NCBI GenBank assembly: GCA_030603385.1
Contig: JAUVXW010000008.1
Span: forward strand, 32,001-96,000
Source of the DNA: Promethearchaeota archaeon
GTDB taxonomy: Archaea; Asgardarchaeota; Lokiarchaeia; Sigyniarchaeales; SOKP01
Reading direction: 5' to 3'
DNA: 64,000 bases
Made by a program: the position numbers and the translations under genes. Positions 12,830-49,109 of the stretch are shown here, in pieces; the first letter of the stretch is position 1; each line of letters starts with the position of its first letter. A model generated the notes under the pieces. The model had not been told where the DNA came from and did no database searches. It was given only the letters and a program-made list of their open reading frames with translations.

Positions 12830-13053
12830 ATTAAAGACTTTTTCACTTATTTCAAATTTTTTAAAAATTCTCGACTTAAAGATATAAAATCAATCTAAAA
12901 AGGTTTTCTATTGGATTTAGTATTAATTTAGAGCTAAAATTGCGAATCTTCAACTTTGTCAATGGAAAGAATTAAAAATAGAGTATTCTTATTAAATCTT
13001 TGACCTTTTTTATTATAAATTAAATCCAATATCTATTATAAAAATGATATAAG

Positions 13054-19761: not shown

Positions 19762-19817
19762 TTTAACACTTTTTTTTTCCTATTTTATTTGGTTAATTAT
19801 TAAAAAAGCATAGAAAT

Positions 19818-20087: not shown

Positions 20088-20304
20088 TTTTATTTTGATT
20101 TTTGCTTTCTTATAATAATCAGAGTTTCTTCTAATTAAGGATATGGTCGATTTATTGCAATTTAAATTTATTACTTCGATAAATCTCGTTTAAAAAGTCA
20201 ATATCTTCTTGAGTAGCAAGTGCCTGAGTCAATTTTAATCCTTTAATTTCATTGTAGTGAATATCATAAGCATTTTTAAAACAATTCACTAAAAGTTGCT
20301 TAAA

Positions 20305-20841: not shown

Positions 20842-21326
20842 TGATGTAATATTATTTTAAAATGATAAAATTTTGATTATTTTTTTAAATTTTTTTAAAA
20901 AATTTTAAACTTCATCTCTAAAAAATAAATCTGGAATTAAAATTTCGGTTATCAATATATAGATATTATATATTTTTATTTAACGAAAGAGGGTGGATTA
21001 CACTTAGGAGGAATTATTGTTAAAAAGTTTTTTCAGTTTACAGGGTTTTGTTCAGTTTCCCGAAAAACGGCTTGTAGCCGCATTTTCACGGGGTTTAAAA
21101 ATAGTTTTTGAAACTGATATCTTTTTGAATCCTCCAAATCGTATTGTGTAATCCAAGTAAATTAATATCGATCTTTGTAAATAAATTTATCTTATTTGAC
21201 AAGAAGATAAGAAATGCTAATTGCTTATATTTTACTGGTTCTTTAGGATTAATCATCAAGATTTTATTAAATAGCAAATATTTTTTACAAAAATAAAATT
21301 ATAACAATTAGAAAAATATTTTAGGT

Positions 21327-29905: not shown

Positions 29906-30154
29906 ATGTCCTTTCTAAATAAAGAAATTGAAAGAGCTACATTTGGGATAATTGTTGGAAATCGTGATGTTTTTCCTGATCACCTTGCTACTGAAGGAAG
30001 AACCGCAATTACAGATGTTTTAAAGGAATTAAATTATGATTATGTTATCTTGAATAAAGAGGATACAAGAGATGGAGTTGTAGAAACCTATAACGATGCA
30101 AAGAAATGCGCCGAACTCTTTAAAAAAAATAGAGACAAAATTAAAGAGATTTAA
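29906..30154 (+). pseudogene. 5' fragment (copy 1) of the L-fucose/L-arabinose isomerase-family gene
   Basis: Gap-free alignment to aa 1-79 of 45784-47220 (51/79 identical by hand count), then a stop. Confidence 0.92.
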
Positions 30155-30180
30155 AAATAGTATATTAATAAATTAATTTT

Positions 30181-31800: not shown

Positions 31801-32138
31801 ATATTTATACCTTTATCTAAATTCTTACAATTATTGATAAAATTCCAGTTTTTCGTAAATGCTATCTATATAAAAATAGAAAATTCAATATTAAAAAATT
31901 AAGTACTTTTACGATAATATAATAATAAAACCTTTGCTAAATTATCTGAGTATTCTGATTTTCAATATTTATTGATTTCTTGTCATCCTCATCATTTTTT
32001 TATATATCTAAATTTTTTGTAAAATAAATTGATATCTTACTAACGATAATTTAAAAAATAAATTTCTTGACTTTTATCCTCAATAAATAAAAGTTTTAAT
32101 ACAATTAGGGTTATATTTTTTATATTTATTCTATATTT

Positions 32139-32267
32139 TCATTTTTCTCCTTTATTCTTTGAATCTGTACTTTGTACTCTTGCTTTGAAACCTTGATTCT
32201 TTCCTGTTTTATCTGCATGAGATTGGATTCTTCGGGCAGCTTTTGAATTCATTTTTGTTTTACCCAA
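32139..32267 (-). CDS. 42-aa SMP-domain-like (seed maturation/LEA-type) microprotein, not in ORF track
   Basis: GGAGGTGA RBS 5 nt before TTG. MGKTKMNSKAARRIQSHADKTGKNQGFKARVQSTDSKNKGEK fits the A.RIQS.....G.....F.AR.QS...KN pattern. Confidence 0.72.
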   Translation of the reverse strand: MGKTKMNSKAARRIQSHADKTGKNQGFKARVQSTDSKNKGEK

Positions 32268-32808
32268 ATATTTCACCTCCTTTATTTATTTTAGGAATAT
32301 TAGAACATCATCCACTTTAAGACCATTCTTATTAATCCTTCCATTAAAGATCTCTAATCTTGTAAGTAATTTTAGAAATTGAATTGTACCAGAGATATTG
32401 ATTTATAATTTTATTGAATAATAGTAAATTATATAGTTTGAATCGAAAAATACGGAGATTTTTCTTCTTTGGGTGCACTCTAATGTGATCGAAATATGAA
32501 CGGTAATCTTCTTCGGAATACCACATAATTATTTAATTTCTTTTAACTATAATATTTTTTATTTAATGAACCTAAAATCATAATTAATATATAAATAATT
32601 TTTCCCCAAGTAATTCGGAGGTCACCACGGCGGGACATCAATTATCTGGGAAAATGGGGAAAAAGATATCTTTCTATTTTGCTTATTAAATGATTACAAT
32701 AGATATCTTGAATCTCCATTAAATAATAGCGAATTGGCATTGACAAAGATCTTTCTAATATCATAATATATCGATTATTTTTATGGGAATCCTTTATTAA
32801 AAATATTT

Positions 32809-33612
32809 TTAATGATACATTCTTACTTGAAGTATATAGAAAGAAACTAATGATTTGGTTAGAAATAGTTTTAACTCAACATAAAGCTCAGTAGATTCCC
32901 TCAATAAATCCAAACATGAATATTTTGAAAATCTTTTAAGAAATTTTGGATCTTCATGCTTAATATTATCTGCTATATTATATAAATAACCAAATAATCT
33001 ACTAAAATTTATTTCTACAGGATTATAAAATTCTTTCATGCTTGATTTGAGATCAGGTCGATATATTCTCTCTTTTAAATTATGATGTTGCCCTTTAAAT
33101 AACTTTAATAGCTTTTTTGTATAGTTTTCAAATATAGAACTCAAATAGAGAATAAATTCACTAAATATTATTAATCTTTTATCTTCGTTTTTCTTATACT
33201 TTAATAGTTGATTTTTAAAAATTGAAAATGTGAATATTAATTTCTTAGTATATAGCTTCTTAATTTCGTTTAAACCTGATAGTAATTTATTTACCCATTT
33301 TTTTGGTATGATTTCTTCTAATTTTTGAGAAAATTCAGCAAACAATGTAGTTATTGGTCTTAAAACCACATTAATATCAATTGAATTAACAATAATTTGA
33401 CTAAAATCAGTTAAAATTTGTCTAGATACTTCACTGAGACTTTGAGAAAAATTCTCAATAATGAGTTTTCGAGTATCTGACAGGCTTTTAAAGATTTTAA
33501 GATTATTTCTTCGTTCTTTAAGAGTACTAATTTTCTTTTCATTAAGTAACTTCTTAAAATCTTTTTTTGATATAACATTATTTTCGATTAAATCGCCATA
33601 TTTTATTGACAT
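32809..33612 (-). CDS. Hypothetical protein, possible degenerate HEPN-like C-terminus
   Basis: Helical; SIFE ... NIADNIKH resembles a HEPN-type E...R/Nx4-6H arrangement. Confidence 0.45.
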   Translation of the reverse strand: MSIKYGDLIENNVISKKDFKKLLNEKKISTLKERRNNLKIFKSLSDTRKLIIENFSQSLSEVSRQILTDFSQIIVNSIDINVVLRPITTLFAEFSQKLEEIIPKKWVNKLLSGLNEIKKLYTKKLIFTFSIFKNQLLKYKKNEDKRLIIFSEFILYLSSIFENYTKKLLKLFKGQHHNLKERIYRPDLKSSMKEFYNPVEINFSRLFGYLYNIADNIKHEDPKFLKRFSKYSCLDLLRESTELYVELKLFLTKSLVSFYILQVRMYH

Positions 33613-33804
33613 GTACTATTTTGTCACCTAATTACTATATATTTCTAATAAGGTTATTTCTTTCATTACAAGCAAAGGAAAACATGAACCAGTAGAAATA
33701 AAATTTCCTAAAATAAATTTAATTTTTATATTAGATTTTTAGAAAAAATAAATAATAAAAGGGTATTAAGTTTCATATCATAATCAATCTTATGGAATTT
33801 AAAG

Positions 33805-34089
33805 ATGTCATTTATTAAACCTAAAATGAGAGAAACTATTTTTGGAGTAATTATTGGTAATCGCGATGTTTCTCCAGATAATCTCGCAGAAGAAGGACGA
33901 AAAGAGATCATCAGTGTCTTAGAAAATTGGGGGTATAAATATATTATATTGAATGAAAATGATACTAAATTCGGTGTTGTGGAAACATATGAAGACGCGA
34001 AGAAATGTGCTGAATTATTTAAGGCAAATAGTGATAAGATAATGGGTACTTCAGTTATTTTACCCAATTTTAGGGATGAAAACAATTAG
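33805..34089 (+). pseudogene. 5' fragment (copy 2) of the L-fucose/L-arabinose isomerase-family gene
   Basis: Gap-free alignment to aa 1-92 of 45784-47220 (55/92 identical by hand count); ends just after NF.DE. Confidence 0.92.
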
Positions 34090-34353
34090 TAGGGTTTATC
34101 ATTTTTAAAGATAATAATTGAGCTATAAACAAGAAGCCTAATTGACATTGATGATCGTATAGAGTCTAAAATTAGCAAATATAAAATTTTGAAGCTCCCA
34201 ATAGCTTTAGAAAATCAAAAAATCCTTTGACCTCTTATAAATATTAAATACCTTTTTAATAACTAAATTAATATGAATGCATCACTTTTTCTCATTTGAA
34301 TTATAACATAAAATTTTCATTTCTGAATTATTTCATATGATTAAAGACAAAAA

Positions 34354-35784
34354 ATGACTGAAATTATTAAAAGTGGAGCAGGAATTCATGAAGGCTTCGA
34401 ATTTCAGTATTGGTATGGTGTGAAATTGATAATTGACTGGAAAATTTCACCACCAAAAGATTCAATAAACCCACCTTGGTTAAAAGAAGAGATTGGTAGA
34501 AATGAGTTTGGAATCTTTGATGATATTTTTATGTATAAAGATTCTGACTATTTTTTCTATCAAGCAAAAAAATCAGTTAGTACTAAGGGTGGGCTTATAG
34601 ATGAAAATGAATTATTAGATGATAAGTCTAGTCTATCGATTTTGGAAATGTATTTATCTTATAAGAAAATTAAGAAAAAATTTCCTGATGAAAATTTTTA
34701 TTTAATAAATGTATCAAATAAAGCAATTTCAGGAATATTAAGAGAAATAATTGTTCCTAATGAAAATAGAATAGAAGATTCATTTATTAAAAACAGCATT
34801 AAAAAAGATGAAAAAATTAAATTAAGAGAAGCAATTAAGGAAAAATGTGGTGGAAATGAGCTTAATGATTTTTTGAAAAGACTTCGATTTATCCATTTTG
34901 AAAATCCTGAATTTGAGGTAAAACATAAACCAATTCTCCCATTAAATATAATTCAAAACGTATTCAATTGGGTAAAGAAGATTGCACAAAAGAAATTCAC
35001 AAATTCAGAGAATAAAATTTCCTATGGAGATTTTCAATTTTTATTAAATATCAATGAATTAGAAGTACCTTTAAGATTAGGATTTTACTCAAAATCCGAA
35101 TTTCCATCAGAAATTTTATATGATTATTCAATCGACTTTTATTCCCAGATAGATGGAACCCTAAATGATATTGATTGGAATAAGTTCAGAGAAGAAATTG
35201 AGGATTTACGAAAAAAAATTATCAAAGAGAGTCAAAATCGTTTAATCCGAATTGAAGCATTATCTCATCTTACATTAGGATATATTATTGGATTTGTTTT
35301 TAGATCTACAACTGGCTTCAAATTGCAGGTTCTTCAACGATTTAAAGATCTTGAGGAAATTTGGGAATACGAATCAAATAATCGCTATAAAATTGAGAAA
35401 GATATTGATATTAGAGTAGAAATGTCAGATATTAATTCTAAAAATTTAATAATTTGTATGGAATTTACTGAAAAACCTATTAAGCATTTCATAAAAGAAT
35501 ATTTAACTAATTATAAAATAGATTATAATCAAATTATTGAAATTGTAACAAAACCCCCAATTAAAGTAAATCAAGTTACTCCTTTAATCAATTTCATAAT
35601 TGAATTGATTTTAAAGGTTAAAACAATTAAGAAAGTACATATTTTTAATGCAATTCCATTAGCGTTAGCAATTTTATTGGGATATAATTTCAATGCATTG
35701 CCAACTATTCAATTATATGAATTTGACATGGTAGAGAGAAAATATATTCCAAGTTATATATTAAAACAAAAATTAGGTAGGTGA
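34354..35784 (+). CDS. CBASS effector: Cap4-like endonuclease plus SAVED domain
   Basis: N-terminal GFEFQ...E...FDDI...YQAK (Cap4-type PD-(D/E)XK variant). C-terminal SAVED motifs HLTLGYIIG and VHIF.AIPLALAILLG...IQLYEF. Confidence 0.82.
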   Translation: MTEIIKSGAGIHEGFEFQYWYGVKLIIDWKISPPKDSINPPWLKEEIGRNEFGIFDDIFMYKDSDYFFYQAKKSVSTKGGLIDENELLDDKSSLSILEMYLSYKKIKKKFPDENFYLINVSNKAISGILREIIVPNENRIEDSFIKNSIKKDEKIKLREAIKEKCGGNELNDFLKRLRFIHFENPEFEVKHKPILPLNIIQNVFNWVKKIAQKKFTNSENKISYGDFQFLLNINELEVPLRLGFYSKSEFPSEILYDYSIDFYSQIDGTLNDIDWNKFREEIEDLRKKIIKESQNRLIRIEALSHLTLGYIIGFVFRSTTGFKLQVLQRFKDLEEIWEYESNNRYKIEKDIDIRVEMSDINSKNLIICMEFTEKPIKHFIKEYLTNYKIDYNQIIEIVTKPPIKVNQVTPLINFIIELILKVKTIKKVHIFNAIPLALAILLGYNFNALPTIQLYEFDMVERKYIPSYILKQKLGR

Positions 35785-35790
35785 AAAATT

Positions 35791-36780
35791 ATAGCAAATA
35801 CAGTAAGTCAAGCTTTTGATGAATTTAGGCAAAATTTAGAACCATTAAAGCCAGAAAAAGAGAAAATTCAAAAAAGACATAAATATATAAGAGAAACATT
35901 TAGCAACAAAATAAAGAATGATGGAAGAATGCATTCATTCTTATCTGGGTCATACTCTCGTAATACTCAAATAAGACCTATTAATGATGTGGATATAGTA
36001 ATATTGTTTGATATAGAGGAATATTGGGATCAATTTAAAAACAACCCACGTGAGATGCTCAATTTTACAGGAGAAAAATTAAAAGAAACTTATCCAGATA
36101 AAGATATAATAATTCAATCTCATTCTATTGGAATTAAATTCAAGGATCTTCCCGATGTAGATGTTATACCTGGATTTATTAAGGATTATAATAAGGAAAT
36201 CTATTTAATTCCAAATTTTAAACTAAATAATTTCATTGAGACATCCCCTACTAAACATAAAGCTATTATCTCTAGATATAACCAAAATTTAGGGGACAAA
36301 TTCATTCACATCATAAAAATGATGAAATGTTGGAGGAACAAATTAATAAAAGAAAGCATGAGTAAATCTGGGATTGAATTAAAATTCAAATCTTTTCATT
36401 TAGAAATCTTTTTGATGAATATTTTAAAAAGTAGATTTTCTAATTATGCTAAAGCTATTCAACAAGTTTTTTCAAAAGCTGCTGAAAATTTAGACTGCGA
36501 GTGCTATGATCCTGCAGGGTTAAGTGGAAGATTAGATGGTTATTTAACAGATATTCAAATTAAAACTTTAAAGAATATCTTTAGCAATACCAGTGAAGAT
36601 ATCAAGAGTTTACTACGATTAGAAATGGAAGGTAAATATCAAGAAGCAATAGAAGGTTGGAGAGATCTTTTTGGAGATCAATTTCCTAAACCTCTAAAAA
36701 CAAATAAAAATACATATAAAAAAAACCTAAAAACAAAATTTCCAATAGAAGGAAAGAATTATACATACGGTGAAGAATAA
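35791..36780 (+). CDS. CD-NTase (cGAS/DncV-like, SMODS) cyclic oligonucleotide synthase
   Basis: GSYSRNT, DVDIV, DVIPG, K.W, SFHLE, DPAG and W..LFG..FP motifs. The frame extends upstream of the track's Met to ATA at 35791 (TVSQAFDEFRQNLEP), behind an AGGTGA RBS. Confidence 0.92.
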   Translation: MANTVSQAFDEFRQNLEPLKPEKEKIQKRHKYIRETFSNKIKNDGRMHSFLSGSYSRNTQIRPINDVDIVILFDIEEYWDQFKNNPREMLNFTGEKLKETYPDKDIIIQSHSIGIKFKDLPDVDVIPGFIKDYNKEIYLIPNFKLNNFIETSPTKHKAIISRYNQNLGDKFIHIIKMMKCWRNKLIKESMSKSGIELKFKSFHLEIFLMNILKSRFSNYAKAIQQVFSKAAENLDCECYDPAGLSGRLDGYLTDIQIKTLKNIFSNTSEDIKSLLRLEMEGKYQEAIEGWRDLFGDQFPKPLKTNKNTYKKNLKTKFPIEGKNYTYGEE

Positions 36781-38625
36781 ATGTTATTTCAATGGTATAA
36801 AACTGAAATAGATTTATACCATAAAGAACTGTTAATAATTAAAGAAGAAATAAAGGATTTTTTTCCCTACGGCTATGAAAAAAATGATGATTTATGTATT
36901 GTTGGTATTATAGATGTAGATGGAAAAGAAGAAAATATCTTAATTTCATATCCTAGAATTTATCCTTCTTCTCCACCAAAGGTATGGTTATTTGAATCTA
37001 ATGAATTTAAAAAAGTTAAAGATTTTCAGGAACATTTTCATCAAAATTATGATGAATCCTTATGTCTCTTCACATCAGATTGGGGTGATGGAAGCTGGCA
37101 TTTTAATATGGATACTCATGATGTTCTTGAAAAACTAAGAGATACAATAAGAAAAGCTAGAACTAAGGAACATACCGATGAACATACTTCGATTATTAAT
37201 CCTGTTCCGGGTAAACTTAGATATGATTTTGAAATTTATATACCCGCTGAAATTTTAAACTACATAATAAAAAATGACAAAAGTCTAGATAAACTTGAAT
37301 TATACGAATTTTCAAAAAATTATCAAGGTCGTATATTAAAATTTCCTTCTAAATATAACGTTATGGAAAAAATTTTTGAAGGAAATTTTTGGTCAAATTT
37401 TAATTTATTGAACAATCCATTAAAAGGATATTATCTTAAATTGCCATTTAATAAAAATGAATTTCGAAAGGAATTAGCAAAAGAAAAGAATCTAATTATA
37501 TTTTTAAAAAACTATGGCTTTAATGAACAAATAATGTTAGAATTAGATTTTATCTTTTTTGTTTTTAAAGATACCAGAGTTCCTAACAGTAGAGTTAAGA
37601 ACCCTAAAGAATTTGAAAATCTAATATCTTTTGCTTATTTTTTAAGAAATACAGATTTATCAAACATCTACAAAATCCCTATTTATCAAATATTTTCAGT
37701 TAAATTCCCAGATGATATTTTTCAAAGAACTAATGCAATTTTTGATACGTTAATAAATAAGATAAGGAACAAAAAGATCTTAATTTTAGGTTTAGGAACT
37801 CTTGGTTCATTTATAGTTTTGGAATTGGTAAAATCAGGAATTAAAAATTTTATTTTATATGATTTCGATATATTTCAAACGATAAATATATGTCGCCATG
37901 TTGGAGATATCACAGATATTGGAAGGTATAAAGTGGAAGTTGTTGAAGAAATTATCAGATTAAAAAACCCAGATGTAAATGTTAAAAAATCTATACGAAA
38001 TCCTTTTGAAAAAGATAAGTATTTGTTGGAGTTTATTGAAGATTTGAAGAAATCAGATATAATCATTGATACGACTGCCAGTTATCAAGTAAATTTACAA
38101 TTAAATAAAATTTCTATTGAAAATAACAAAAATGTGATATATTCTTGGTGTGGACCTAATGCAGAAGTTGGTAGAGTATTTAGGGTCATTCCTAGAAAAA
38201 CTCCTTGTTACTATTGTATAAATCTTCAATTAGAAAAAGAACCTCAAAAATTCCCTAGAATAAAAAAGCAGAATTTAGAATTTGAATTACCTCAATTTGT
38301 AGGATATCGTCAACCAGGAATTCCAGGAATCAGTATTGATATAAATTTTATTAGTTTATTTGCTTCAAGATTAGTGATTCAAACACTTTTAATTGATGAG
38401 GATGCTTACCCTGATGCAAAAGCAAATCATTATATCTGGCAAAATAAACCTACAGAAATTGAACCATTTGATGAGATTAAATTAATACCTCAAGGAGATT
38501 TTAGAATGATTAAGAGATGTCCATTTTGTAAACCAAAATCAAAAAAAATGTTTAATCCACAAAAAAAAATTCAAATTGATGTTATACTAAAGAGAGGAAA
38601 AAAAAATTTTAGGAAAATCAAATAA
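36781..38625 (+). CDS. cap2: CBASS Cap2-like E2-E1 (ThiF) fusion
   Basis: E2-like YP..YP..PP...H......LCL; E1 motifs GLGTLGS, DFD, NICRH, G.YKV, DTTA, PCYYC and CPFC; directly follows the CD-NTase. Confidence 0.88.
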   Translation: MLFQWYKTEIDLYHKELLIIKEEIKDFFPYGYEKNDDLCIVGIIDVDGKEENILISYPRIYPSSPPKVWLFESNEFKKVKDFQEHFHQNYDESLCLFTSDWGDGSWHFNMDTHDVLEKLRDTIRKARTKEHTDEHTSIINPVPGKLRYDFEIYIPAEILNYIIKNDKSLDKLELYEFSKNYQGRILKFPSKYNVMEKIFEGNFWSNFNLLNNPLKGYYLKLPFNKNEFRKELAKEKNLIIFLKNYGFNEQIMLELDFIFFVFKDTRVPNSRVKNPKEFENLISFAYFLRNTDLSNIYKIPIYQIFSVKFPDDIFQRTNAIFDTLINKIRNKKILILGLGTLGSFIVLELVKSGIKNFILYDFDIFQTINICRHVGDITDIGRYKVEVVEEIIRLKNPDVNVKKSIRNPFEKDKYLLEFIEDLKKSDIIIDTTASYQVNLQLNKISIENNKNVIYSWCGPNAEVGRVFRVIPRKTPCYYCINLQLEKEPQKFPRIKKQNLEFELPQFVGYRQPGIPGISIDINFISLFASRLVIQTLLIDEDAYPDAKANHYIWQNKPTEIEPFDEIKLIPQGDFRMIKRCPFCKPKSKKMFNPQKKIQIDVILKRGKKNFRKIK

Positions 38626-38738
38626 GATTTTCAACTCGGAGAAAACCTTTCTTTAATATACAATTTCGAATAAAATATAGAATAGTTAACTAATGAATAT
38701 TTCTTGCGATTTTTGAAATCAAACCTAAAGAAAATATT

Positions 38739-39212
38739 ATGAAAAATAAATATAAATTAGAAATTTCTAAATTTTTAGTTAATAAATTGTTAGATTTTTC
38801 ATCTAAAACTAATAATGAAGTCTGTGGAGTTCTAATTGGAAAAGAAATAAAATATAATCATATAATAATAACTGATGTAATTCTTGATAAGAATTCACTT
38901 AATGCTTCAAGATTTTCTGTAACTAGAAATACAAAAGGGCTATATCCAAATGTTAAAGAAATAGTTGAATATTCCGTTTATGATAATGTTGATTTTATTG
39001 GGGATTGGCATTCTCATCCTTACGGTTCTAGTTTATATAGTTCTATAGATTACTATTCTATGATTACCATGCTAAAAGATCCCGATTATTACTTTTTAAA
39101 TTCAATTGTTTTGATAATTGTATGTCCTCCAAATAAGATTAATAGTTTTCTGTTTCAAAGGGATAAAAAAAAGCCTCAAAAGATTGAAAATTATTCAAAA
39201 TCAATTAATTGA
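38739..39212 (+). CDS. cap3: CBASS Cap3-like JAB/JAMM metallo-isopeptidase
   Basis: EVCGVLIG and GDWHSHP......SSID (E...HxHx7SxxD). Confidence 0.9.
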   Translation: MKNKYKLEISKFLVNKLLDFSSKTNNEVCGVLIGKEIKYNHIIITDVILDKNSLNASRFSVTRNTKGLYPNVKEIVEYSVYDNVDFIGDWHSHPYGSSLYSSIDYYSMITMLKDPDYYFLNSIVLIIVCPPNKINSFLFQRDKKKPQKIENYSKSIN

Positions 39213-39383
39213 TTAAAAATTTCCTTGTAAAATACTCCTTAATTCTTTTTATACATTAGTTTAAAGTCGAAACTTTAATTCAATATTGTTCTTTAAATAT
39301 TGAAATACTCCTAAATATCTACCTTATTCCATGCTTTATAATATCAGTGTTTAGTAGATAAGAATTTCTTAATTGTAAGTAAT

Positions 39384-40442
39384 TCATGATTTAATATATT
39401 CGAATATTGTCTCTTTTTCTCCTTGATCATTTAAGACATAACCCTCTTCTAAAGCAATTAGCATTTCATCTAATAAGTGTAATTTACGAATCGTTTCTTG
39501 CTTTTGTAAACTAAAATTCTCATGGGCAAATGGATTTCTGATCCTTTTGAAACAACTTTTAAAATAGTTTTTATAATCTTTTTGCTTCTCTTTTCCCTCC
39601 ACTGTAGAAATATCATCCAAGAATATAACTGGACTATTTTCTGAGAATATCTGTTCAATTAATTGAACTCCAAAATTTCTTTTTAAGCCTTTTTTTTTAT
39701 TTACTTTCTTTAATATTTGCTCAATTTCATTATCAACTGCAGCAATTGATTTATCAAAAAAACCTTTTTTAAACAATCTATAAGCCTCATTAATTATTAT
39801 GTCATGAAAATAATTCCATGGATAATTTTTATTTGAAATTCTCCTGAATATTAATAATAGACAAAATAGAAATATCATAATGATAAAAGATAATAAATAC
39901 CAAAACCTCTCAAAAGTAATCAATTTATAAATAATATCAATATCTACATTGTTGTTATTTGGCTCAATAACAATGTATATAGGATCATTGAATAAATCTT
40001 TATAATCTAAAATTAATGAGAAAGACCCCAATAATTTATTATTTTGATGCGAAATGTAATTAATATCATCCAAATATCCATTTTGAGCTTTTATTTCTAA
40101 ATATTTTGTATATTGTGCTGAATTCAGGATGTAAACATCAATTATATTATCTCCCTTGTAAGATACGAATAATTCTGAATATGGGAGTATTACAGGATGA
40201 TTTATTCTAATTTCCTGAACAAAATAACTGTCATATCTTATGTCCTGATCATAAGATGAATCTTCTAATTTATAAATTGGAAGAGTAAAAATCGGTGTTA
40301 ACAACCATAAAAATATGTTTAAGAATAAACCTATAACTATTACTACAATAAATAAATTGTATAAATTATTATCTAAGTAATTATTTATTCTGGTTTTGAA
40401 TGGTAATTTAATATCCTCAGTTTTCTTTTTGGAATTCTTCAT
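39384..40442 (-). CDS. Membrane protein with extracellular domain and C-terminal TIGR02391 (HEPN-like) domain
   Basis: Two TM helices; G..LI...FS...P, E...Y..F and RIRNPFAH (Rx4H). Confidence 0.72.
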   Translation of the reverse strand: MKNSKKKTEDIKLPFKTRINNYLDNNLYNLFIVVIVIGLFLNIFLWLLTPIFTLPIYKLEDSSYDQDIRYDSYFVQEIRINHPVILPYSELFVSYKGDNIIDVYILNSAQYTKYLEIKAQNGYLDDINYISHQNNKLLGSFSLILDYKDLFNDPIYIVIEPNNNNVDIDIIYKLITFERFWYLLSFIIMIFLFCLLLIFRRISNKNYPWNYFHDIIINEAYRLFKKGFFDKSIAAVDNEIEQILKKVNKKKGLKRNFGVQLIEQIFSENSPVIFLDDISTVEGKEKQKDYKNYFKSCFKRIRNPFAHENFSLQKQETIRKLHLLDEMLIALEEGYVLNDQGEKETIFEYIKS

Positions 40443-40633
40443 TGTTTTTACGAATTTTTGTTGATTTCTATAAAATGTAAAATAGGAAGGATTTATTAAA
40501 TTTATTTACATTATTGATAAAAATTCATTAAAAGACTAAATAATATTTAAATATAAGATTAATTTATTTGAGTTCAAAGATCCTTGATTTACTGCATCTA
40601 TAGTTAGGTGAGTAAGACTAAAATATAATTGAT

Positions 40634-41410
40634 ATGTTTAAACCAAATAAAGATCGGACGTATCTGATAACATATATTGATATTCTTGGATTTGAAGCAT
40701 TCCTTGAAAATCATTCTTTATCAGAAGTTTATGATAAGATGTACAGTTTATTGAAAGCTTTAAAAAATACTAAAGTACAAGGTGTAGTTGAAATTAAATA
40801 TGATAAAAATGTATCTAAAGTCTTTCAAGATTATATAACAAACATTCCCTATTTTTTGTTTAGTGACTCTGTATTGATTTATAAAGAAATAGGGGAGGAT
40901 CACCAACCCAATCTTAGTCCCGAAGATACAGTATTTGGTGAAATGATCATGTCGTTAGAAGAAATCTTTAAGAGTGCATTTAAACAAAGAATTTTTATAA
41001 GAGGAGGACTAGCTTACGGAAAAGCGATAATTCAACCAGGTTCTCAAGGGATTAATAATATTTTAGTTGGCAAACCAATTATTAATGCTTATAAAACAGA
41101 AGAAGCTCAAAATTGGATGGGATGTGCTTTTCATGAATCTTGTAGAGATCTTATTGAAAATTCAATATACACAAAGGATTTTTTAGTACCATATCCCATC
41201 CCATTAAAAAATGAATGTCCGATTCTCAATTATGCATTGGGCTGGGTGGATAGTAGTATAAAAGATTTAAAATCTATGTTTGAAAATTGGGAAACATTTA
41301 AGCCCCACCATGAAGTTATTAAATCTAATACTATGGAGTTTTTTGAAGATAGTAAAGATAGAAGCCCCCGATGGTTAGGATTTGGAATTGATTTTCATAT
41401 GAATTTATAA
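40634..41410 (+). CDS. Class III nucleotidyl cyclase-like protein
   Basis: YIDILGF, FSDS, IRGGLAYG and G.PIINAY..E. Confidence 0.72.
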   Translation: MFKPNKDRTYLITYIDILGFEAFLENHSLSEVYDKMYSLLKALKNTKVQGVVEIKYDKNVSKVFQDYITNIPYFLFSDSVLIYKEIGEDHQPNLSPEDTVFGEMIMSLEEIFKSAFKQRIFIRGGLAYGKAIIQPGSQGINNILVGKPIINAYKTEEAQNWMGCAFHESCRDLIENSIYTKDFLVPYPIPLKNECPILNYALGWVDSSIKDLKSMFENWETFKPHHEVIKSNTMEFFEDSKDRSPRWLGFGIDFHMNL

Positions 41411-41923
41411 GAACACTGTGATTCCTTTAAAATTCTATATAAGGTCTCGATACTCATTTTAATTCAGAGATAGGAAAAATTAATCATTGTAAACCATCAA
41501 CCTTCTCCCTCAAACCATATAATATATTTATGCCCAGAACTTTCTTTAAATCTTTTTTTATTACATTTGCTAATTTTGTACTCACCTTTTCAACTTATTT
41601 TCTTACTTTTCTTACTTTCCTAATATATTTAAACTTAATTATAAAAATATAAGCAGACTTTTTATTCAACCATTATATTTATTTAAAACATATATTATAT
41701 CAGTTATATTTTAAAATATATAATAGCTACAGCTTATTACAGCAAGAATATTACTCAAAAAAGAGAAAAAAATGAAAATTTTAGCAGTCCATAGAACTAA
41801 TGGTAATACTAAATTTCTTAAAGTGTTTTTAAATCAAATTATGAGAGGTCAAACAAAATCTTCTTAATTAAAGGATTTTTTTAGTATTGTAAATGATATA
41901 TTTCTGGTGCATTTCATTATATA

Positions 41924-42478
41924 TTAAATAATAGGGCTGATAACATGAGTACAATTTGGATGTTGGGGTATTGTTTTTGCATAACGATTATAATTTTCGT
42001 TTTCATATATATCAATAAGCTTATTGTATAAAGGCTTCACTTTATGTTTTTTTCCTGCCATCTCCGTAGTACATAATGTATTATGATCTTCATACTGAGA
42101 ATGTGGAATAAAGCAATCCTCTTCTCCAGAATCATTTAAAATCTCCATAACTGCTTGATTATAAAATCTGCTTAATTGGATTCGTACCAAGCGTTCTGCC
42201 CAATCTCGAGTAAATACTCTACTATTATCTGCATATTTTGATGTATTTCTAGGTATTTTATTTTGAACTTGATGGTATGCTGTATTTAAATCAGGAATTT
42301 CTCCCATTATCAATTTTTGAAGAATCTTAATAAATTCCTTTTTTCTACTCTCCTCTTCGATTACTTTTCCTGCTGTTGGTCTAGTTTCGATTAATTTTAT
42401 TATTTTATTCTTTAGTTTATGATTTTTTGATAAAACATGTAATATTTCATAAAAGTTATTGGCATATAGCTCACTCAA
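41924..42478 (-). CDS. Hypothetical protein with a MuF/minor-capsid-like C-terminal motif
   Basis: AERLVR.Q..R.YN ... C ... IPQHPNCTH resembles the MuF P.HPNC.C/H motif. Confidence 0.5.
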   Translation of the reverse strand: MSELYANNFYEILHVLSKNHKLKNKIIKLIETRPTAGKVIEEESRKKEFIKILQKLIMGEIPDLNTAYHQVQNKIPRNTSKYADNSRVFTRDWAERLVRIQLSRFYNQAVMEILNDSGEEDCFIPHSQYEDHNTLCTTEMAGKKHKVKPLYNKLIDIYENENYNRYAKTIPQHPNCTHVISPII

Positions 42479-43172
42479 TTTAATTTACCGCCTACTATAT
42501 TTTATTATTTTTTCATTTTTAAATTAATATTTTCTATAATACTATTTTGAGATACTTAAGGTTTGTAGGTGGTATGGAAATTTAAATATATGTTGTATTT
42601 GGATAATAGCCTACTATTAATGGGAATCCCGACCTTAGGATCCTGAACTGCATGGTGATACCAGGTTTCGTATCGTCTTTATCCTGAAAAGATCGCTTTC
42701 CTCTCATATCACTTGAACTTATAATGTCGATCACATACAAAAATATACACCTCATTTCATTAATATTAGAGATCTTTACATTATAGGTTTTTTTTTTCAT
42801 ATTTAATTAAAAATAATAAAATCTCAAGATCTAAAATAGTTTATAGTAGTATAAAGTATTTTCAGCTTATAATTATTTACAAAATTTAAGGGAAGTTTAT
42901 AAAGAAAGAATTAAAGAAAAGATCTTTAAGTTATTTATAAAGGCAAAATTGTACGATGCAAAAAATGAAAGTATATAAACACATAATCATATATAATTGA
43001 ATAGATGTGGAATTAGCTAAATTTAAACATATAAAATTTATGTATATAATCATTAGATTATTAAAAATAGGTTTTCTTGATAAAAATGCAAAATATTTGA
43101 ATTTTTATAGGAGATTTTTTAAATTATATAAAAATTGATTAATATTCGTATATTTAAAACATTCTTAGACAA

Positions 43173-45689
43173 ATGAAAGATAAAAACATAGAAAAAGAAA
43201 ACAGTTATCAAGAAGGAAAAGAAAGATATTCAAATGGAAAGGCATTTCAAAATGAATTGCATATTAATGGGTATTATAATTGTGATAATCAAGAATTAGA
43301 CAATATGGATTTACAACATAATACCGATGAAATCCCTGTTTCCGGAGAAATATTTGATTATCTAAAATCTTGGGACAAAGAATTTAAAGACAATAATAAA
43401 AGCTATTGTGTTAAACAACAGGACAAATTAAATGAAAGTAATGATTATTATGAGAAGGATGTCTATAAAACAAGCCAATCATCGGAAAATAGTGAACCAA
43501 ATGTTTGTAATAAGTTGTTTAACACTGATTGTAAGGAAAATACTGATAATATTGTAAAAGAATCATTTGTAGTCTCGCTAAGTCTAAGAGATAAATTGTT
43601 TGAAGATTTCTTAGTCCAGAAAGAAGATATCGAAAAATGTAAGTATATCCCAAAATTTAGAGATTTCCAAAATATACCTAAATATGAAGGGCTTACCAAA
43701 AAATACTTTAGTCATGTTAGAAATGAATGGTTCAGGGAAATTCTGCATAAGGATAGCTTTATAGAATACCGAAATGAAATAATGTTAAAAAATTTTTTTC
43801 AAAATGATAAAAAGTTATTTAATTTAATCCAGAGTAATCAATATCCTGAAGGTGTTCTAATTTATAATCTTATTAAACATTTAGATTTATCGTTTCCAAA
43901 ATTAGAAAAAGCAATTTATGGAACTAATAACAATAATATAATAAGAGTATTACAAAATCTAGGTGTCTTTAAATGGGAAGGTTTAACCTCAAAAATTAAG
44001 AGTTTCATTTTATCAATAAAGGACATATCTTTAAAACAACAAGCTATAAAAGAGTTCCAGAAATACTTAAAAACTAAAGTTTATAATGGGTTTAAACGAA
44101 ATAATTTTCCAAGAATTGAAAAATTTACATTAAAAGATTATCCAGAAGGTTGGTTAATTTTGAAATTATGTGAAATCAGTTTAATTTCTGATACAAAATT
44201 AGGAAAATTGATTGATTATAGTGATTTACCTTATCACTTAACAGAATTAAGACGTTTCAAAGGAAATAGAATTGAGAGCATAAAGAATTTTATCTCTAAT
44301 ATCGATGATAAAGAAAAAAAAGAGAAATCTTTTGTAATTCTATCGAATTATATTAAGTTTATTGTATTTTCTCAACTTAATAGAGAGGGTGTAAAAGAAA
44401 TCGATGAATTTTTGGATATTAATCCAAAAAAATGGTTAATATATAATTTATGTGTTATTTATTTAATAGTAATTCGAGATTTTGGTAAAAAAATTGATTA
44501 TAAAGATATTATAACATCTGTTCACACACGATATGACTTTTCAGATATAATAATCAAAAGAATTCGCAACTTTATAAATAAAACAGATGATCTCCAGAAA
44601 AAAGAGATTGCGACGCAAGTTTTGAGTATATATTTGAAGAGAGCCATTTATAATAAATTAAAACAAATTGATTTACCTAATTACAAAAAATTCAAAAGTA
44701 AGATGCACCCTGCACTATGGTTAATAGTTCAGATTTGTTCGATTTATTTACTACATCCTTTTGAGTTAGAAAAGCTCATTAATTATAGTGAATTATCAAA
44801 ACGCTTGAAAGTTATATCGTATTTTACTAATACCACAATAACTAAACTTAGAAAGTTTATTAGGTATAGTGGGACATCGAAACAAAGACAAATAGCTAGA
44901 GATATAATAAATAGATTTCTTGAGGTTAGAAATGAAGAATTTCAAAGATATACTGGACCAAAGGTTCAGAATTTAAAAATGATAAATAATTATTCTGAAT
45001 TGGTCAATCATTTAGAATATGTATATAAATTAGGAACATTTCCTGAAGAAATTTTAGAAGGATATCATGAATATCCACGTATATCAAGATTTAACCAACA
45101 ATTTAGATTTATTTCCATTGAAAAGAAGAGAGTTTTTATTAAAAAAATGATTTCAGATGGATTAATCAAAAAAGTTGACAGCAACGATTCTAAAATTCAT
45201 AATTCAGTTTATAACTTAATAGAATTATCAAAAAATAAGTATTATAAACCTTCTGAGATTTATAATACACACAATAGCCCTGGTCATGAGTCTGTTTTAA
45301 ATAAAATATTAGAGGAAGATTCTAATTCCGTATGTCTGGAAATTCCTATTTGGATGTGGCATAAAGACCATTACTTGACAGGTCATATTGATTTAATCCT
45401 TGTCATGGATGATATCATATATATATGCGATTATAAACCGGAAGAGACTCCAATTCCCGAAACTACTCGATTATCATATTCATTCATGAGATCTATTCCA
45501 CAAGTGGCCTCATATGCATTAGTTTTAAAGAATTTATTTAACATTACTGATATAATGTGCATTACATTCAATAAAAGTGGAGCTTGGATATATGAACCAA
45601 AAACAACTTTAACACACTTAAACAATTTTATTAAAAAAAATAAACAATATAAAGCGAGTGATAGACCTTGGGAAAAGTATTTCCTATGA
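43173..45689 (+). CDS. PD-(D/E)XK nuclease with four internal ~95-aa helical repeats
   Basis: C-terminal H...EIPIW...GHIDLI...ICDYKP...QVASYA; repeats start near aa 224, 323, 417 and 512. Confidence 0.8.
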   Translation: MKDKNIEKENSYQEGKERYSNGKAFQNELHINGYYNCDNQELDNMDLQHNTDEIPVSGEIFDYLKSWDKEFKDNNKSYCVKQQDKLNESNDYYEKDVYKTSQSSENSEPNVCNKLFNTDCKENTDNIVKESFVVSLSLRDKLFEDFLVQKEDIEKCKYIPKFRDFQNIPKYEGLTKKYFSHVRNEWFREILHKDSFIEYRNEIMLKNFFQNDKKLFNLIQSNQYPEGVLIYNLIKHLDLSFPKLEKAIYGTNNNNIIRVLQNLGVFKWEGLTSKIKSFILSIKDISLKQQAIKEFQKYLKTKVYNGFKRNNFPRIEKFTLKDYPEGWLILKLCEISLISDTKLGKLIDYSDLPYHLTELRRFKGNRIESIKNFISNIDDKEKKEKSFVILSNYIKFIVFSQLNREGVKEIDEFLDINPKKWLIYNLCVIYLIVIRDFGKKIDYKDIITSVHTRYDFSDIIIKRIRNFINKTDDLQKKEIATQVLSIYLKRAIYNKLKQIDLPNYKKFKSKMHPALWLIVQICSIYLLHPFELEKLINYSELSKRLKVISYFTNTTITKLRKFIRYSGTSKQRQIARDIINRFLEVRNEEFQRYTGPKVQNLKMINNYSELVNHLEYVYKLGTFPEEILEGYHEYPRISRFNQQFRFISIEKKRVFIKKMISDGLIKKVDSNDSKIHNSVYNLIELSKNKYYKPSEIYNTHNSPGHESVLNKILEEDSNSVCLEIPIWMWHKDHYLTGHIDLILVMDDIIYICDYKPEETPIPETTRLSYSFMRSIPQVASYALVLKNLFNITDIMCITFNKSGAWIYEPKTTLTHLNNFIKKNKQYKASDRPWEKYFL

Positions 45690-45783
45690 TTATGAATTAA
45701 AATCTATTATTTTTTTAGAAAAAAATTAAAACAAGAAGAAAATTTACTTATTTAGTTAATTATTACCTTAAAAGGGATAAATA

Positions 45784-47220
45784 ATGTCATTTATACAGCA
45801 TAAAGAATTGAAATCATATTTTGGGATTATTTTAGGAAATAGAGACGTATTTCCAAATCATTTAGTAAAAGAAGGTAGAAAAGATATTATAGATGTAATG
45901 AATGAATTAGGATATCACTATGTTATTTTAGATGAGGAAGCCACACCACTGGGGGCAGTTGAGACGTACTCAGATGCTAAGAAATGTGCAGAACTTTTCA
46001 AAAAGAATTCTGATAAAATTTTGGGGATAATTTTATGTCTTTGCAATTTTGGTGACGAGAAAGCCGTAGCCAACACACTAAAACTTGCTGATCTCAATGT
46101 TCCTGTTTTAATTCAAGCATGTTCAGATGAGATTAGTAAGATGGATCGAGAACATCGAAGAGATGCGTTTTGTGGAAAAATTTCTGTTACAAGCGTATTA
46201 TATCAACATGGAATTCCATTTACTCTAACAAAATATCACACTTGCGCAATAAAATCGGATTTTTTCAAAGATGATCTTCACCGATTTGAAAAAATATGCA
46301 AGATTGTGAGCAAGCTTAGGAATGCGAGGTTGGGTCAAATTGGCACAAGACCCAATGCATTTGAGACTGTTAGATATAGTGAAAAAATTTTGGAATTTAA
46401 CGGGATAAGTGTAGAACCAATAGATCTATCAGAAATTTTTGGATTAATTGAAAAATTAAAGGATAATGATCCAAAAGTAAAAGATAAGATTGACATTATA
46501 AAGAATTATACCTCTACATCTTCATTTCCAGAAGATGGTATTCTTAAACTTGCAAAATTAGCTGTTGTTATTGAAAATTGGGTAAAAACAAATGACTTAG
46601 ATGGATTTGCTTTTCAGTGCTGGCCTTCAATACAAGATAACTTTGGGATCGTCCCATGTGCTGTCATGAGTATGTTTAGCGAAGGACTTATTCCAGCAGC
46701 GTGTGAAGTCGATATCTCGGGATTAATAAGTATGTTAATATTACAAATTGCTTCTGAAACGCCCTCAGCAATTTTAGACTGGAATAATAATTATGGAGAT
46801 GATCCTAATAAAATGGTTCTATTCCATTGCAGTAATTTACCAAAATCTTTTTTTCAAGATACGCGAATGACTATTCATCCCATAATTTCTGATCAAAAAG
46901 GTGGAGAGGTAAGTTTTGGAGCAATTCAAGGTCGTATTAAAACCAAACCTTGTACATTATTAAGGATTGAAACAGATGACTTATATGGTGATATTAAAGC
47001 CATCATAGCAGAAGGAAAATATACTGAGGATTCTCTAAACACTTTTGGAGGATACGGAGTAGTTGAGATTCTTAATTTACAATTCTTATTGAAATCTCTA
47101 TGTTTAGGAGGATTCGCTCATCATGTAGCATCAACTTTAAATGAAGTTGGTGATATTGTCTATGAAGCTATTTCAAAATATCTTAATTATAACGTAGAAT
47201 TTCATAATAAGAATATTTAA
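45784..47220 (+). CDS. L-fucose/L-arabinose isomerase family protein (intact copy)
   Basis: GNR..FP, NFGDE, RRDAFCGK, QCWP, ACEVD, LDWNN, FHCSN, TFGGYG and GFAHH motifs. Confidence 0.88.
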   Translation: MSFIQHKELKSYFGIILGNRDVFPNHLVKEGRKDIIDVMNELGYHYVILDEEATPLGAVETYSDAKKCAELFKKNSDKILGIILCLCNFGDEKAVANTLKLADLNVPVLIQACSDEISKMDREHRRDAFCGKISVTSVLYQHGIPFTLTKYHTCAIKSDFFKDDLHRFEKICKIVSKLRNARLGQIGTRPNAFETVRYSEKILEFNGISVEPIDLSEIFGLIEKLKDNDPKVKDKIDIIKNYTSTSSFPEDGILKLAKLAVVIENWVKTNDLDGFAFQCWPSIQDNFGIVPCAVMSMFSEGLIPAACEVDISGLISMLILQIASETPSAILDWNNNYGDDPNKMVLFHCSNLPKSFFQDTRMTIHPIISDQKGGEVSFGAIQGRIKTKPCTLLRIETDDLYGDIKAIIAEGKYTEDSLNTFGGYGVVEILNLQFLLKSLCLGGFAHHVASTLNEVGDIVYEAISKYLNYNVEFHNKNI

Positions 47221-48014: not shown

Positions 48015-49109
48015 TTATTTTTTTCTTTTTATTAAAAGATCCTTTTGGAAAAACCCTGAATCGATAAGTTTACTTCTCTCGTCATTCATATGAGTTAATA
48101 AATCAAATGGATAAAAAATTTGACTATCATTATGGTAATTTAAGACACGTTTCCGAGTTAAATATATTGAATATTCAGAAATGTCGCATCCAATCCATCT
48201 TCTTTTTAACTTTTCTGCGGCTAAAAGAGTAGTGCCTGATCCACAAAAAAAGTCAGCAACTAAATCTCCCTCATTAGAACCAAGCTTTATTAATCTCTCA
48301 AGTAAAGAATGATGCTTTTGTGTGGGGAATCCTGTCCATTCTTTTGAAGCAGGTTGTAAACAAGGGATCTTCCAGACATCATCTAATTTTTTATCATTGA
48401 CAATACGATATCGTACATGTCCATTCTCATCTTTTAAATTTTTCAATACACCATTAACATTAATCCTCATTAGCTGCTTCCTTGGTTTCTTACGAGGGAG
48501 TCTGATTTCATTAAAAGTGTAATTATCCGATTTGGAATATACCAAGATGTTATCATGTGCGCGTGGTAAGTTTTTTTTCCCTGCAGAATATTTATTATAG
48601 TAATACCATATTATATTATTTACAAAATTATTTTCTCCAAAAACCTCATCTAGTATCAATCTTATATAATGACTCGCATGCCAATCTAGGTGAATAAACA
48701 ATAACCCTGTGTTTGATAATAATTTTCTAAACAAGGTTATCCTCTGGTAAAACATTTGTAAATATGAATCTAAATCCTTATTCCAGTGATCATAATAAGC
48801 AATTGAATCAAAAGTCTCGTTTTTTTCTGTAATTTCAATTTTATAATTAACGCCAGAAAAAAAAGGGGGATCTACGTAAATTAAATCAATTTTATTTTCA
48901 AATTCATTTAACAAGTGGCATAAAACTTCTAAATTTTGTCCCCAGAATAATTTGTTTTTCCAACCTTTATAGGATGATCTAACTGGAATTTCTTCATTAT
49001 CTAAACATGCTTGAATCATAAAGGATTCAAAAAAATTGGAAAATTCTTTTTTTAGATTATCTAATTTTAAAGTAATATCTGCCTTATTCTTCCAAATTAA
49101 GTTAACCAT
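48015..49109 (-). CDS. Orphan amino-DNA methyltransferase (N6A/N4C, Mod-like, beta class)
   Basis: IDLIYVDPPF, FPTQK and DFFCGSGTT; no adjacent restriction subunit. Confidence 0.88.
   Translation of the reverse strand: MVNLIWKNKADITLKLDNLKKEFSNFFESFMIQACLDNEEIPVRSSYKGWKNKLFWGQNLEVLCHLLNEFENKIDLIYVDPPFFSGVNYKIEITEKNETFDSIAYYDHWNKDLDSYLQMFYQRITLFRKLLSNTGLLFIHLDWHASHYIRLILDEVFGENNFVNNIIWYYYNKYSAGKKNLPRAHDNILVYSKSDNYTFNEIRLPRKKPRKQLMRINVNGVLKNLKDENGHVRYRIVNDKKLDDVWKIPCLQPASKEWTGFPTQKHHSLLERLIKLGSNEGDLVADFFCGSGTTLLAAEKLKRRWIGCDISEYSIYLTRKRVLNYHNDSQIFYPFDLLTHMNDERSKLIDSGFFQKDLLIKRKK

Follow-up and report, generated by a model that had tools for sequence, protein, structure and literature searches.

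Gene-end replacement by mobile endonuclease genes is best described in yeasts and in fungal mitochondria. In the WHO elements of Torulaspora and Lachancea yeasts, the endonuclease cuts a sensitive FBA1 allele, and the nuclease gene and a resistant gene end are copied in during repair; the displaced old end persists and serves as a homology arm, fragments accumulate over repeated events with the most recent lying closest to the full-length gene, the nuclease genes decay to pseudogenes, and the replaced end and the rest of FBA1 give contradictory trees (Coughlan et al. 2020, eLife; PMC7282813). The mORFs of fungal mitochondria form "gene hybrids", at atp6 in Allomyces and at atp6, atp9, cox2 and nad3 in Glomus (Beaudet et al. 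2013, PMC3630166). Here we analyze a stretch of 64,000 nucleotides (hereafter the window; G+C content about 27%) from contig C30 of a Lokiarchaeia-type genome, G000, that is 94% complete. Within it an open reading frame (ORF) of 838 amino acids (43173-45689, + strand) lies immediately upstream of an isomerase gene of the Fucose_iso_C family (45784-47220). We argue that this ORF probably encodes the endonuclease of a WHO- or mORF-like, gene-end-replacing homing element, and that an island bearing a cyclic-oligonucleotide-based anti-phage signaling system (CBASS) would have hitch-hiked with it.

Two further groups of enzymes bear on this proposal. Free-standing endonucleases of T4-like phages display presence/absence polymorphism, co-conversion of flanking sequence and a target located in a neighboring gene, and the Type IIS enzyme FokI has N-terminal recognition subdomains of the helix-turn-helix (HTH) type tethered to a C-terminal PD-(D/E)XK cleavage domain. 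The phage endonucleases include the products of the seg and mob genes, associated with intronless homing (Edgell et al. 2010, PMC2988022; Wilson and Edgell 2009, PMC2790892), and work on I-Ssp6803I covered in two reviews indicates that PD-(D/E)XK enzymes can act as homing endonucleases (PMC3943268, PMC3384342). We found no published report of gene-end-replacing nuclease elements in archaea; a paper on Asgard mobile elements that treats the aloposons (PMC8813620) concerns tRNA-integrating elements and does not mention nucleases.

The sequence-only reading of this DNA had placed a replaced isomerase 5' end beside the nuclease gene, and comparison with a related genome, G190, bears this out. G190 is 92-97% identical to the window in the flanks at the nucleotide level and carries a GT87 gene directly beside an uninterrupted isomerase gene. 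The window holds two extra isomerase 5' fragments upstream of the full-length gene, both on the + strand and both located by tblastn. Copy 1 (29906-30151, codons 1-82) is the displaced native start: the first 80 codons of the G190 isomerase match it at 91%, as against 62% for the present start, and it groups with the G190 start in trees (support 97/89). Copy 2 (33805-34089, codons 1-92, "type 2") groups with the functional isomerase start of metagenome contig L034 (support 100/99). The present start ("type 3"; 45784-46045, + strand, codons 1 to ~87), set apart by comparison and tree, is 63% identical in amino acids to copy 1 and 60% to copy 2, and is only ~67% identical in nucleotides to G190 up to about 46045, after which the next ~250 nt are identical to G190. 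The remainder of the gene (46046-47220, + strand), as defined by Pfam, comparison and tree, is native, being 98% identical to G190 in amino acids and 97% in nucleotides and pairing with it at support 100/100. Because the G190 start matches copy 1, the G190 gene body matches that of the window, and GT87 adjoins the isomerase in G190, the segment from ~30142 to 46045 is an insertion of ~15.9 kb. The window isomerase is a chimera of a foreign type-3 start and a native body, with its native start stranded upstream. Left and right crossover points differ in position (gene nt ~165 and ~260). Copy 1 is itself chimeric, since it follows the recipient type represented by G190 up to ~30067 and another type from 30068 to ~30145, where homology ends.

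Besides the nuclease and copy 2, the insertion holds an older layer, a type II CBASS and other genes. The older layer, between copies 1 and 2 (30152-33804), comprises in the ORF list two ORFs of 539 and 267 amino acids, both on the - strand and with function unassigned, which gave no Pfam, NCBIfam or PADLOC matches. The cargo between copy 2 and the nuclease unit (34090-42817), annotated with Pfam and PADLOC, consists of the type II CBASS (SAVED effector, CD-NTase, E2/E1, JAB), a Ymh/HEPN protein, and unknown ORFs that returned no informative PADLOC or NCBIfam match; none of it is common to the inserts of other loci that carry type-3 starts. The features of an integrase-mobilized element are absent: a search with PF00589 found no tyrosine recombinase on contig C30 (serine or unknown recombinases were not specifically searched), the window contains no tRNA and no Rfam match, and the three gene-start copies offer no identical att core, their mean column identity being 71% and their longest common exact stretch about 8 nt.

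The minimal unit at the right edge of this insertion spans about 42818-46045 and includes a conserved upstream flank (42818-43172, + strand; recognized by comparison as the left edge of the unit and a candidate promoter), the nuclease gene, a 94-nt spacer (45690-45783, + strand, likewise delimited by comparison), and the foreign first ~87 codons of the isomerase, a candidate resistant allele. The description of the gene offered by the sequence-only reading, namely an acidic and probably disordered N-terminus, four repeats of ~95 amino acids, a Cas4/RecB-like nuclease domain, and an end 94 nt before the isomerase ATG on the same strand, holds throughout. The stop codon at 45689 and the ATG at 45784 give exactly that spacing. 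The N-terminal tail (aa 1-135; 43173-43577, + strand) is of low complexity and acidic, with 28 D+E against 17 K+R (net -11), and is predicted to be disordered, with a predicted local distance difference test score (pLDDT) below 50 in the full-length model. A pre-repeat segment follows (aa 136-211; 43578-43805, + strand), with helices modeled at 138-220, many columns invariant among orthologues, and a ratio of nonsynonymous to synonymous substitution rates (dN/dS) of 0.13. Across intact nuclease genes dN/dS values of 0.09-0.35, alike in the repeats and the nuclease module, indicate purifying selection.

Four tandem repeats of ~95 amino acids make up the central array (43806-44969, + strand; aa 212-310, 311-404, 405-499 and 500-599), each with five helices both in the full-length model and in a single-repeat model (pLDDT 91) built from an alignment of 19 copies. 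The repeat signature begins at aa 224 (YPEGV..), 323 (YPEGW..), 417 (NPKKW..) and 512 (HPALW..). The 19 copies, taken from 5 orthologues, are mutually 22-37% identical, with the consensus P..WLI..LC.I.L....LGK.I.Y......F....I..FI.........YL. Self-BLAST of the single 838-aa protein did not detect the repeats; orthologues match the window protein one repeat off-register with BLAST E-values of 1.5e-21 and 7.8e-26, so that the repetition is well beyond chance. The repeat region is basic, with a net charge of +30. That it might be an HTH-like DNA-reading array had been suggested along with a structure check, and this check gave a divided answer. The five-helix units and the nature of the best matches favored the suggestion: about half of the best 50 VIA structural rows for a single repeat are HTH domains of the XRE/λ-repressor type, including Stl, restriction-modification C-proteins, HigA, CapH-N and P22 c2. 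Profile matching gave it no support, and Foldseek on the single repeat reached TM-scores of ~0.5-0.59 with E >2. As the XRE-type matches reach Z-scores of 4.4-5.9 only, we regard an HTH-like DNA-reading array as plausible. Helix 3 of the unit does not vary among orthologues and is different from one repeat to the next, reading DLPYHL in repeat 2 and SYFTN.TI in repeat 4. A possible likeness to TFIIB/cyclin-like repeats, noted by eye here and in two paralogues (P0014 and the one on contig C36 of G000), gained no support: there was no Pfam TFIIB/cyclin match and no cyclin or TFIIB chain among the same best 50 VIA rows.

The C-terminal module of ~240 amino acids (aa 600-838; 44970-45689, + strand) is predicted from motifs, Pfam and structural matches to be a PD-(D/E)XK nuclease of the RecB/Cas4/MGME1 kind. 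GHIDL at 737, DYKP at 753 and QVASYA at 777-782 lie within the motif set of the RecB/Cas4-like branch (acidic, D, (D/E)xK, QxxxY), represented by E723, D740, D753-Y-K755 and Q777xxxY781; residues E723, D740, D753, K755, Q777 and Y781 do not vary among 7 orthologues or among 15 family members that include stand-alone forms. Against PF12705 the window protein scored 16.8 bits (E 0.0068), below the cut-off of 22, and a relative, P0013, scored 25.9 bits, above it. The AddA nuclease region in NCBIfam was matched weakly by the window protein (E 0.0033), and a profile of the nuclease-module family found no match among PDB sequences. The top Foldseek matches of the module are MGME1, Cas4, ACE1 and Exo5 (probability 0.85-0.99, E ~0.03-0.2). 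The highest-ranking VIA rows are almost all PD-(D/E)XK nucleases (Z 5-7.6), aligned to aa ~630-837 of a model of moderate confidence, the structural matches comprising the DinG N-domain, NucS, Cas4 SSO0001, MGME1, AddA/AdnA, Exo5 and RecB.

The module belongs to a wider family. A stand-alone form of ~245 amino acids is a core gene in 120 of 134 genomes of the same family as G000, mostly single-copy and in a conserved neighborhood, with a probable ribosomal-protein gene among its neighbors in 9 of 20 loci examined. Long forms are numerous (586-1630 aa; 236 representatives at E ≤1e-3), with N-terminal regions that are unrelated between subfamilies and often internally repetitive. The stand-alone form was not found in the G000 assembly, where two long forms match. 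Full-length orthologues of the 838-aa protein are few, 54-82% identical to it, and all from Lokiarchaeal metagenomes: of 400 genomes searched across the phylum, G000 and G225 alone give a full-length match; a scan of genome contigs with the nuclease returned a contig of G225 alone; and a scan of metagenomes matched four contigs with the orthologue alignment and none with the single-protein query.

To relate the nuclease to the type-3 start we examined 19 full-length isomerase loci, comprising nine type-3 loci (the window and eight others, one of these from another genus), two mosaics (L051 and L054) and eight naive loci. Relative to the window, type-3 loci are 87-92% identical in nucleotides over the 5' block and 72-80% over the gene body. 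The 94-nt spacer, 78-94% identical to that of the window in type-3 loci as against 59-76% in other loci, travels with the cassette. Type-3 starts form a clade with support of 100/100; on the gene-body tree, in which the window pairs with the naive G190, the type-3 label requires a minimum of 5 changes, and a single change suffices in 0% of bootstrap trees. On these trees the type-3 5' end has a phylogeny distinct from that of the gene body. Wherever the contig of a type-3 locus extends as far as the upstream gene, 0.7-16 kb of inserted DNA separates GT87 from the isomerase, whereas the two genes are adjacent in seven of the eight naive loci, the eighth being L034, in which GT87 is off the contig.

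The sequence-only reading had proposed a survey of homologue neighborhoods, and its outcome supports a linkage between the nuclease and the type-3 start. All orthologues with readable context (four of four: G000, G225 and contigs L034 and L037) lie upstream of the same isomerase gene. Both G000 and G225 have an intact nuclease gene immediately upstream of a type-3 start; that of G225 is an 82%-identical orthologue, and the type-3 start behind it matches at 95% over the 39 codons present before the contig ends. In five more genomes (G231, G179, G195, G224 and G192), 3' remnants of the nuclease, 17-69 codons long and 75-100% identical, occupy the same position. When the inserts of seven loci (six type-3, one mosaic) were compared, the cargo was found to differ, save that L044 resembles L045 from end to end and L038 has cargo in common with L054; apart from these, the sole sequence common to the inserts is the rightmost 160-280 nt, consisting of nuclease remnant and spacer, and in L046 and L054 even this stretch has been lost.

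Loss of the nuclease can be followed at its borders. The flank at 42818-43172 is 82-85% identical in G205, G199 and G179. Sequence corresponding to window 42833-43077 is joined directly to 45685 in G205 and to 45674 in G199, with no nuclease ORF between, so the ORF is a discrete presence/absence unit; in G179 the upstream flank is joined to 45519, that is, to the last 170 nt of the nuclease gene. Since the remnants upstream of type-3 starts have at least six differing deletion end-points (45478, 45510, 45519, 45623, 45674/45685 and 45700), the nuclease has been lost repeatedly and the type-3 start kept. Presence/absence polymorphism at a fixed site, co-conversion, and degeneration after fixation, by which homing genes are recognized, are all found at this locus.

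The coding sequence at the right crossover distinguishes the two classes of allele. All naive alleles encode G(I/V)xV(V/I)(L/M)PNFGDEK, and type-3 alleles encode GII(L/I)CL(C/S)NFGDEK; the recoding to CL(C/S)NFGDE lies directly 5' of the crossover in all nine type-3 alleles and in both mosaics, and the difference between naive and type-3 alleles is sharpest right at the crossover. The type-3 start turns an otherwise invariant LPNFGDE into LCNFGDE (LSNFGDE in G231), a Pro-to-Cys/Ser change at window 46030-46045. A change of this kind is unusual at a conserved motif, and what was selected may have been a DNA site that escapes cutting and not a property of the protein.

Other observations concern the same locus in related genomes. 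The cargo upstream of the orthologue in L034 (58-3548) differs from that of the window and encodes a 574-aa reverse-transcriptase-domain protein and a 156-aa RNase T-like exonuclease, possibly a defense-type reverse transcriptase module. In L037 (2907-5414) an 836-aa ORF without a Pfam match lies between the nuclease orthologue and the isomerase; by eye it has an R..IIH stretch reminiscent of HEPN motifs, and no relative or remnant of it occurs in the window or the other loci. In L051 (G183:C87:40318-40902) and L046 (G185:C40:26676-27245) the 3' part of the isomerase gene (aa ~283-477) recurs ~5 kb downstream of the full-length gene as a copy with 79-80% identity, and the 3' end may therefore also be a target of gene-end-replacing insertion. 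Assemblies break inside the isomerase locus in G205 (contigs C181 and C206; L053 and L042) and in G228 (C139; L052), one contig ending just past the displaced 5' fragment and another starting just upstream of the type-3 start; islands at the isomerase site are probably under-assembled in metagenome-assembled genomes. Public sequencing runs added little: no RNA run was listed, the best DNA run had a share of 0.23, all runs were short Logan contigs, and joints found at 85% similarity were unreliable; one of these, from 33819 to 46084 with a side of 84 nt, would fit a type-2 isomerase lacking the inner insert, and we give it no weight.

Mobility of the wider family is seen in three long-form paralogues with differing N-terminal arrays, which we compared against 54 genomes of the genus. 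All are strain-specific insertions of 2.15-3.5 kb, absent from the other locus-matching genomes of the genus, in which the flanks abut. The paralogue on contig C36 of G000 (136996-140503; locus L060, 2997-6504) is a 3.5-kb insertion placed exactly between hdrB and hdrC; the insert, which holds a 750-774-aa paralogue and a 182-aa ORF, occurs in this genome only among the 54. The neighboring hdrC tail has 24 mismatches to G190 in its first 150 nt and 0-1 per 50 nt beyond 500 nt, and no displaced hdrC or hdrB fragment was found. In G177 (contig C18) the insertion is 2.15 kb and consists of one gene, its flanks abutting in G178. The last ~10 codons of the adjacent methyltransferase gene have been replaced by a differently spelled copy, with the original ~30 nt on the far side, and 57 nt separate the replaced 3' end from that of the nuclease gene. 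The third paralogue (G206, contig C7) is again one gene, in an insertion of 2.6 kb behind a rubredoxin gene whose tail has been rewritten: a 29-nt insertion with a short local duplication (L064, ~6990-7030) changes its last ~10 codons and leaves the CPVCG motif in place. Thus the gene end is rewritten at two of the three paralogue loci, and at the third the neighbor's tail has diverged. In the window, G177 and G206, the altered gene end is the one on the 3' side of the nuclease gene. For insertions that hold nothing but the nuclease gene, self-mediated spread is the most economical inference. The sequence-only reading would have been refuted by homologues at unrelated loci without split genes; those found at other loci are strain-specific insertions, two of the three with rewritten gene ends.

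These observations are consistent with the following mechanism. The basic array of four HTH-like repeats would read a long site in unoccupied isomerase alleles, probably around codons 83-89, where naive alleles encode ..V(V/I)(L/M)PNFGDE, and the RecB-like PD-(D/E)XK module would cut there. The break would be repaired from element-bearing DNA, with the gene body and the stranded old 5' fragment serving as arms, and everything between them would be copied in, including hitch-hiking cargo such as the CBASS island. The recipient isomerase would then start with the recoded and presumably uncuttable 5' end of the element (..LCLCNFGDE), its own start being pushed upstream as a dead fragment. Repeated events would stack fragments, such as copy 1 and copy 2, and the nuclease would decay once the resistant allele had become fixed. 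A chimeric copy 1 is to be expected under such a scheme, because the old fragment would serve as a homology arm, as in the WHO model (PMC7282813).

Several points weigh against this proposal. The same module appears elsewhere as a conserved stand-alone core gene, and RecB/Cas4-type PD-(D/E)XK domains are mostly end-processing exonucleases and not site-specific cutters. The repeats have no Pfam HTH match, their profile gave chance-level matches only among PDB sequences (best Cog5, E 0.016), and the Z-scores of their HTH matches are of the size that helical bundles can reach by noise. The orthologues in L034 and L037 are separated from a type-2 isomerase start by 2.7-3.1 kb containing other genes, and neither is followed directly by a resistant 5' fragment. 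A six-frame search with the family profile detected no nuclease remnant in the older layer of the window or in the cargo (30000-43200). Kin genomes are not independent samples, and the mechanism would require two alleles to meet in one Lokiarchaeal cell.

The alternative that best withstands the evidence is that strains exchange a flexible island between GT87 and the isomerase by ordinary homologous or homology-facilitated illegitimate recombination with its anchor in the isomerase gene, the 838-aa protein being a cargo gene (such as a restriction-like or anti-phage nuclease) that happens to sit at its right edge. The company kept by the gene could be read in this way, as it sits beside a complete CBASS and a Ymh/HEPN gene in the window and adjoins a reverse transcriptase and an RNase T-like gene in L034; it is not adjacent to the gene end in L034 or L037, and the cargo at the isomerase site is very varied. 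Amid that variety, however, the nuclease or its remnant is almost the sole element common to unrelated inserts, in the same position beside the foreign 5' end, and the paralogues insert without cargo into housekeeping operons (hdrB/hdrC, methyltransferase and rubredoxin), rewriting the gene end at two of three. A passive passenger would leave unexplained the strongly recoded gene ends at several unrelated loci. The 838-aa protein also has no PADLOC match, which together with the solitary insertion of its paralogues into housekeeping operons disfavors the unrelated restriction-type defense protein that the sequence-only reading had entertained as its own alternative. We consider exchange of a passenger at a recombination hotspot unlikely.

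Less probable again, in our estimation, is an element-encoded recombination nuclease, with a circle or fragment bearing a copy of the gene end integrating by a single Campbell-type crossover and the empty allele remaining uncut. The enzyme would act on the element or on intermediates, by resection or by stimulation of crossover, in the manner of PD-(D/E)XK proteins of the RecE/λ Exo or Rpn type. A single crossover with a circle does yield the exact layout of truncated fragment, insert and intact chimeric gene, and the closest structural matches are folds like those of RecB, Cas4 and RecE. Set against this, neither a circular form nor terminal repeats were seen, the two crossovers fall at different positions in the gene, and a resection enzyme has no need of a basic, four-unit, repeat-specific array conserved in orthologues. 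The paralogues, moreover, carry different arrays at different targets, which points to sequence recognition. That the protein is instead a lineage-specific DNA-repair or regulatory factor derived from the ~245-aa nuclease, its adjacency to the isomerase being incidental, is highly improbable: most Lokiarchaeia carry the C-terminal module as a syntenic core gene in single copy, purifying selection acts on the long form and G000 has no assembled stand-alone copy, but full-length matches are confined to two of the 400 genomes searched, the gene has repeatedly decayed to remnants, gene and flanking cassette have spread horizontally across genera, and the paralogues are strain-specific insertions.

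Two other features of the window lie outside the nuclease unit. A second, separate insertion of ~12.5 kb relative to G190 occupies 8450-20971, G190 joining ~20972 almost directly to ~8449; it contains an 887-aa ORF (- strand) and a 2235-aa ORF (13054-19761, + strand). Downstream of the isomerase, an N6_N4 DNA methyltransferase gene (48015-49109, - strand) has a 76%-identical counterpart in L034, and the C-terminal end of the methyltransferase is matched weakly over 26 aa downstream of the isomerase in the nuclease-free G204. As its context is conserved and it is present without the nuclease too, this methyltransferase is not a partner of the nuclease.

If the gene does encode the endonuclease of a homing element, gene-end replacement by homing would extend to archaea from the yeast nuclei and fungal mitochondria to which its descriptions have so far been confined. 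The entry and stacking of integrase-free islands at a housekeeping gene, a complete CBASS among them, would be explained, as would the mosaic state of the isomerase gene. The combination of a tandem HTH-like array with a RecB-like module would be a new endonuclease architecture, whose long and presumably asymmetric targets could be read from natural pairs of empty and occupied alleles; specificity would be directly testable and possibly useful for engineering. The system would also exemplify a core nuclease of the cell that was either captured by selfish elements or set free from them. More tentatively, and with rather less confidence than we attach to the single element, we suggest that Lokiarchaeia may harbor a large family of homing endonucleases in which a RecB-like cutter is joined to interchangeable HTH-like arrays tuned to different gene ends, and which spread by providing a recoded gene end, in the manner of the yeast WHO/HO elements, and ferry defense islands between strains and genera; the arrays may be modular, re-targetable readers of long DNA sites.

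Comparison with described systems sets out what is shared and what is particular to this element. With Cas4 and RecB proteins (PF12705) the module has in common the motif set E..D..(D/E)xK..QxxxY and the fold; unlike Cas4 proper it is without the four-Cys Fe-S cluster, having one near-invariant Cys (C207 in the family alignment), and no cas genes lie near the nuclease gene. Unlike either, it is fused to a repeat array. The overall architecture, with HTH-like N-terminal units and a C-terminal PD-(D/E)XK domain, resembles that of FokI, whereas no sequence or profile similarity to FokI or I-Ssp6803I was detected, the module belongs to the RecB/Cas4/MGME1-like branch with QxxxY, and the nuclease has no cognate methylase. 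The seg and mob endonucleases of T4-like phages resemble it in being encoded by stand-alone genes beside conserved genes, with flanking co-conversion and a target in a neighboring gene; they differ in being GIY-YIG or HNH enzymes of phage chromosomes, with no retained duplicate of the target gene end.

The closest parallels are with the mORF and WHO elements. A mORF likewise combines an endonuclease ORF with a horizontally acquired gene terminus, the native terminus being duplicated beyond the ORF (PMC3630166), whereas mORFs encode LAGLIDADG or GIY-YIG enzymes, affect C-termini only, reside in organelle genomes, are often fused in frame to the host gene, and carry no cargo. Every genomic signature of the WHO model is seen at the window locus. 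The WHO nucleases, however, are intein-like LAGLIDADG proteins with a zinc finger, as opposed to a RecB-like PD-(D/E)XK module with four HTH-like repeats; their cleavage has been shown experimentally and ours is inferred; and WHO elements replace a 3' end, whereas the element described here replaces a 5' end complete with start codon and spacer, in an archaeal host with no known meiosis, and contains kilobases of cargo, a CBASS included. The element would work like the WHO and mORF elements, and its nuclease is not a member of their protein families.

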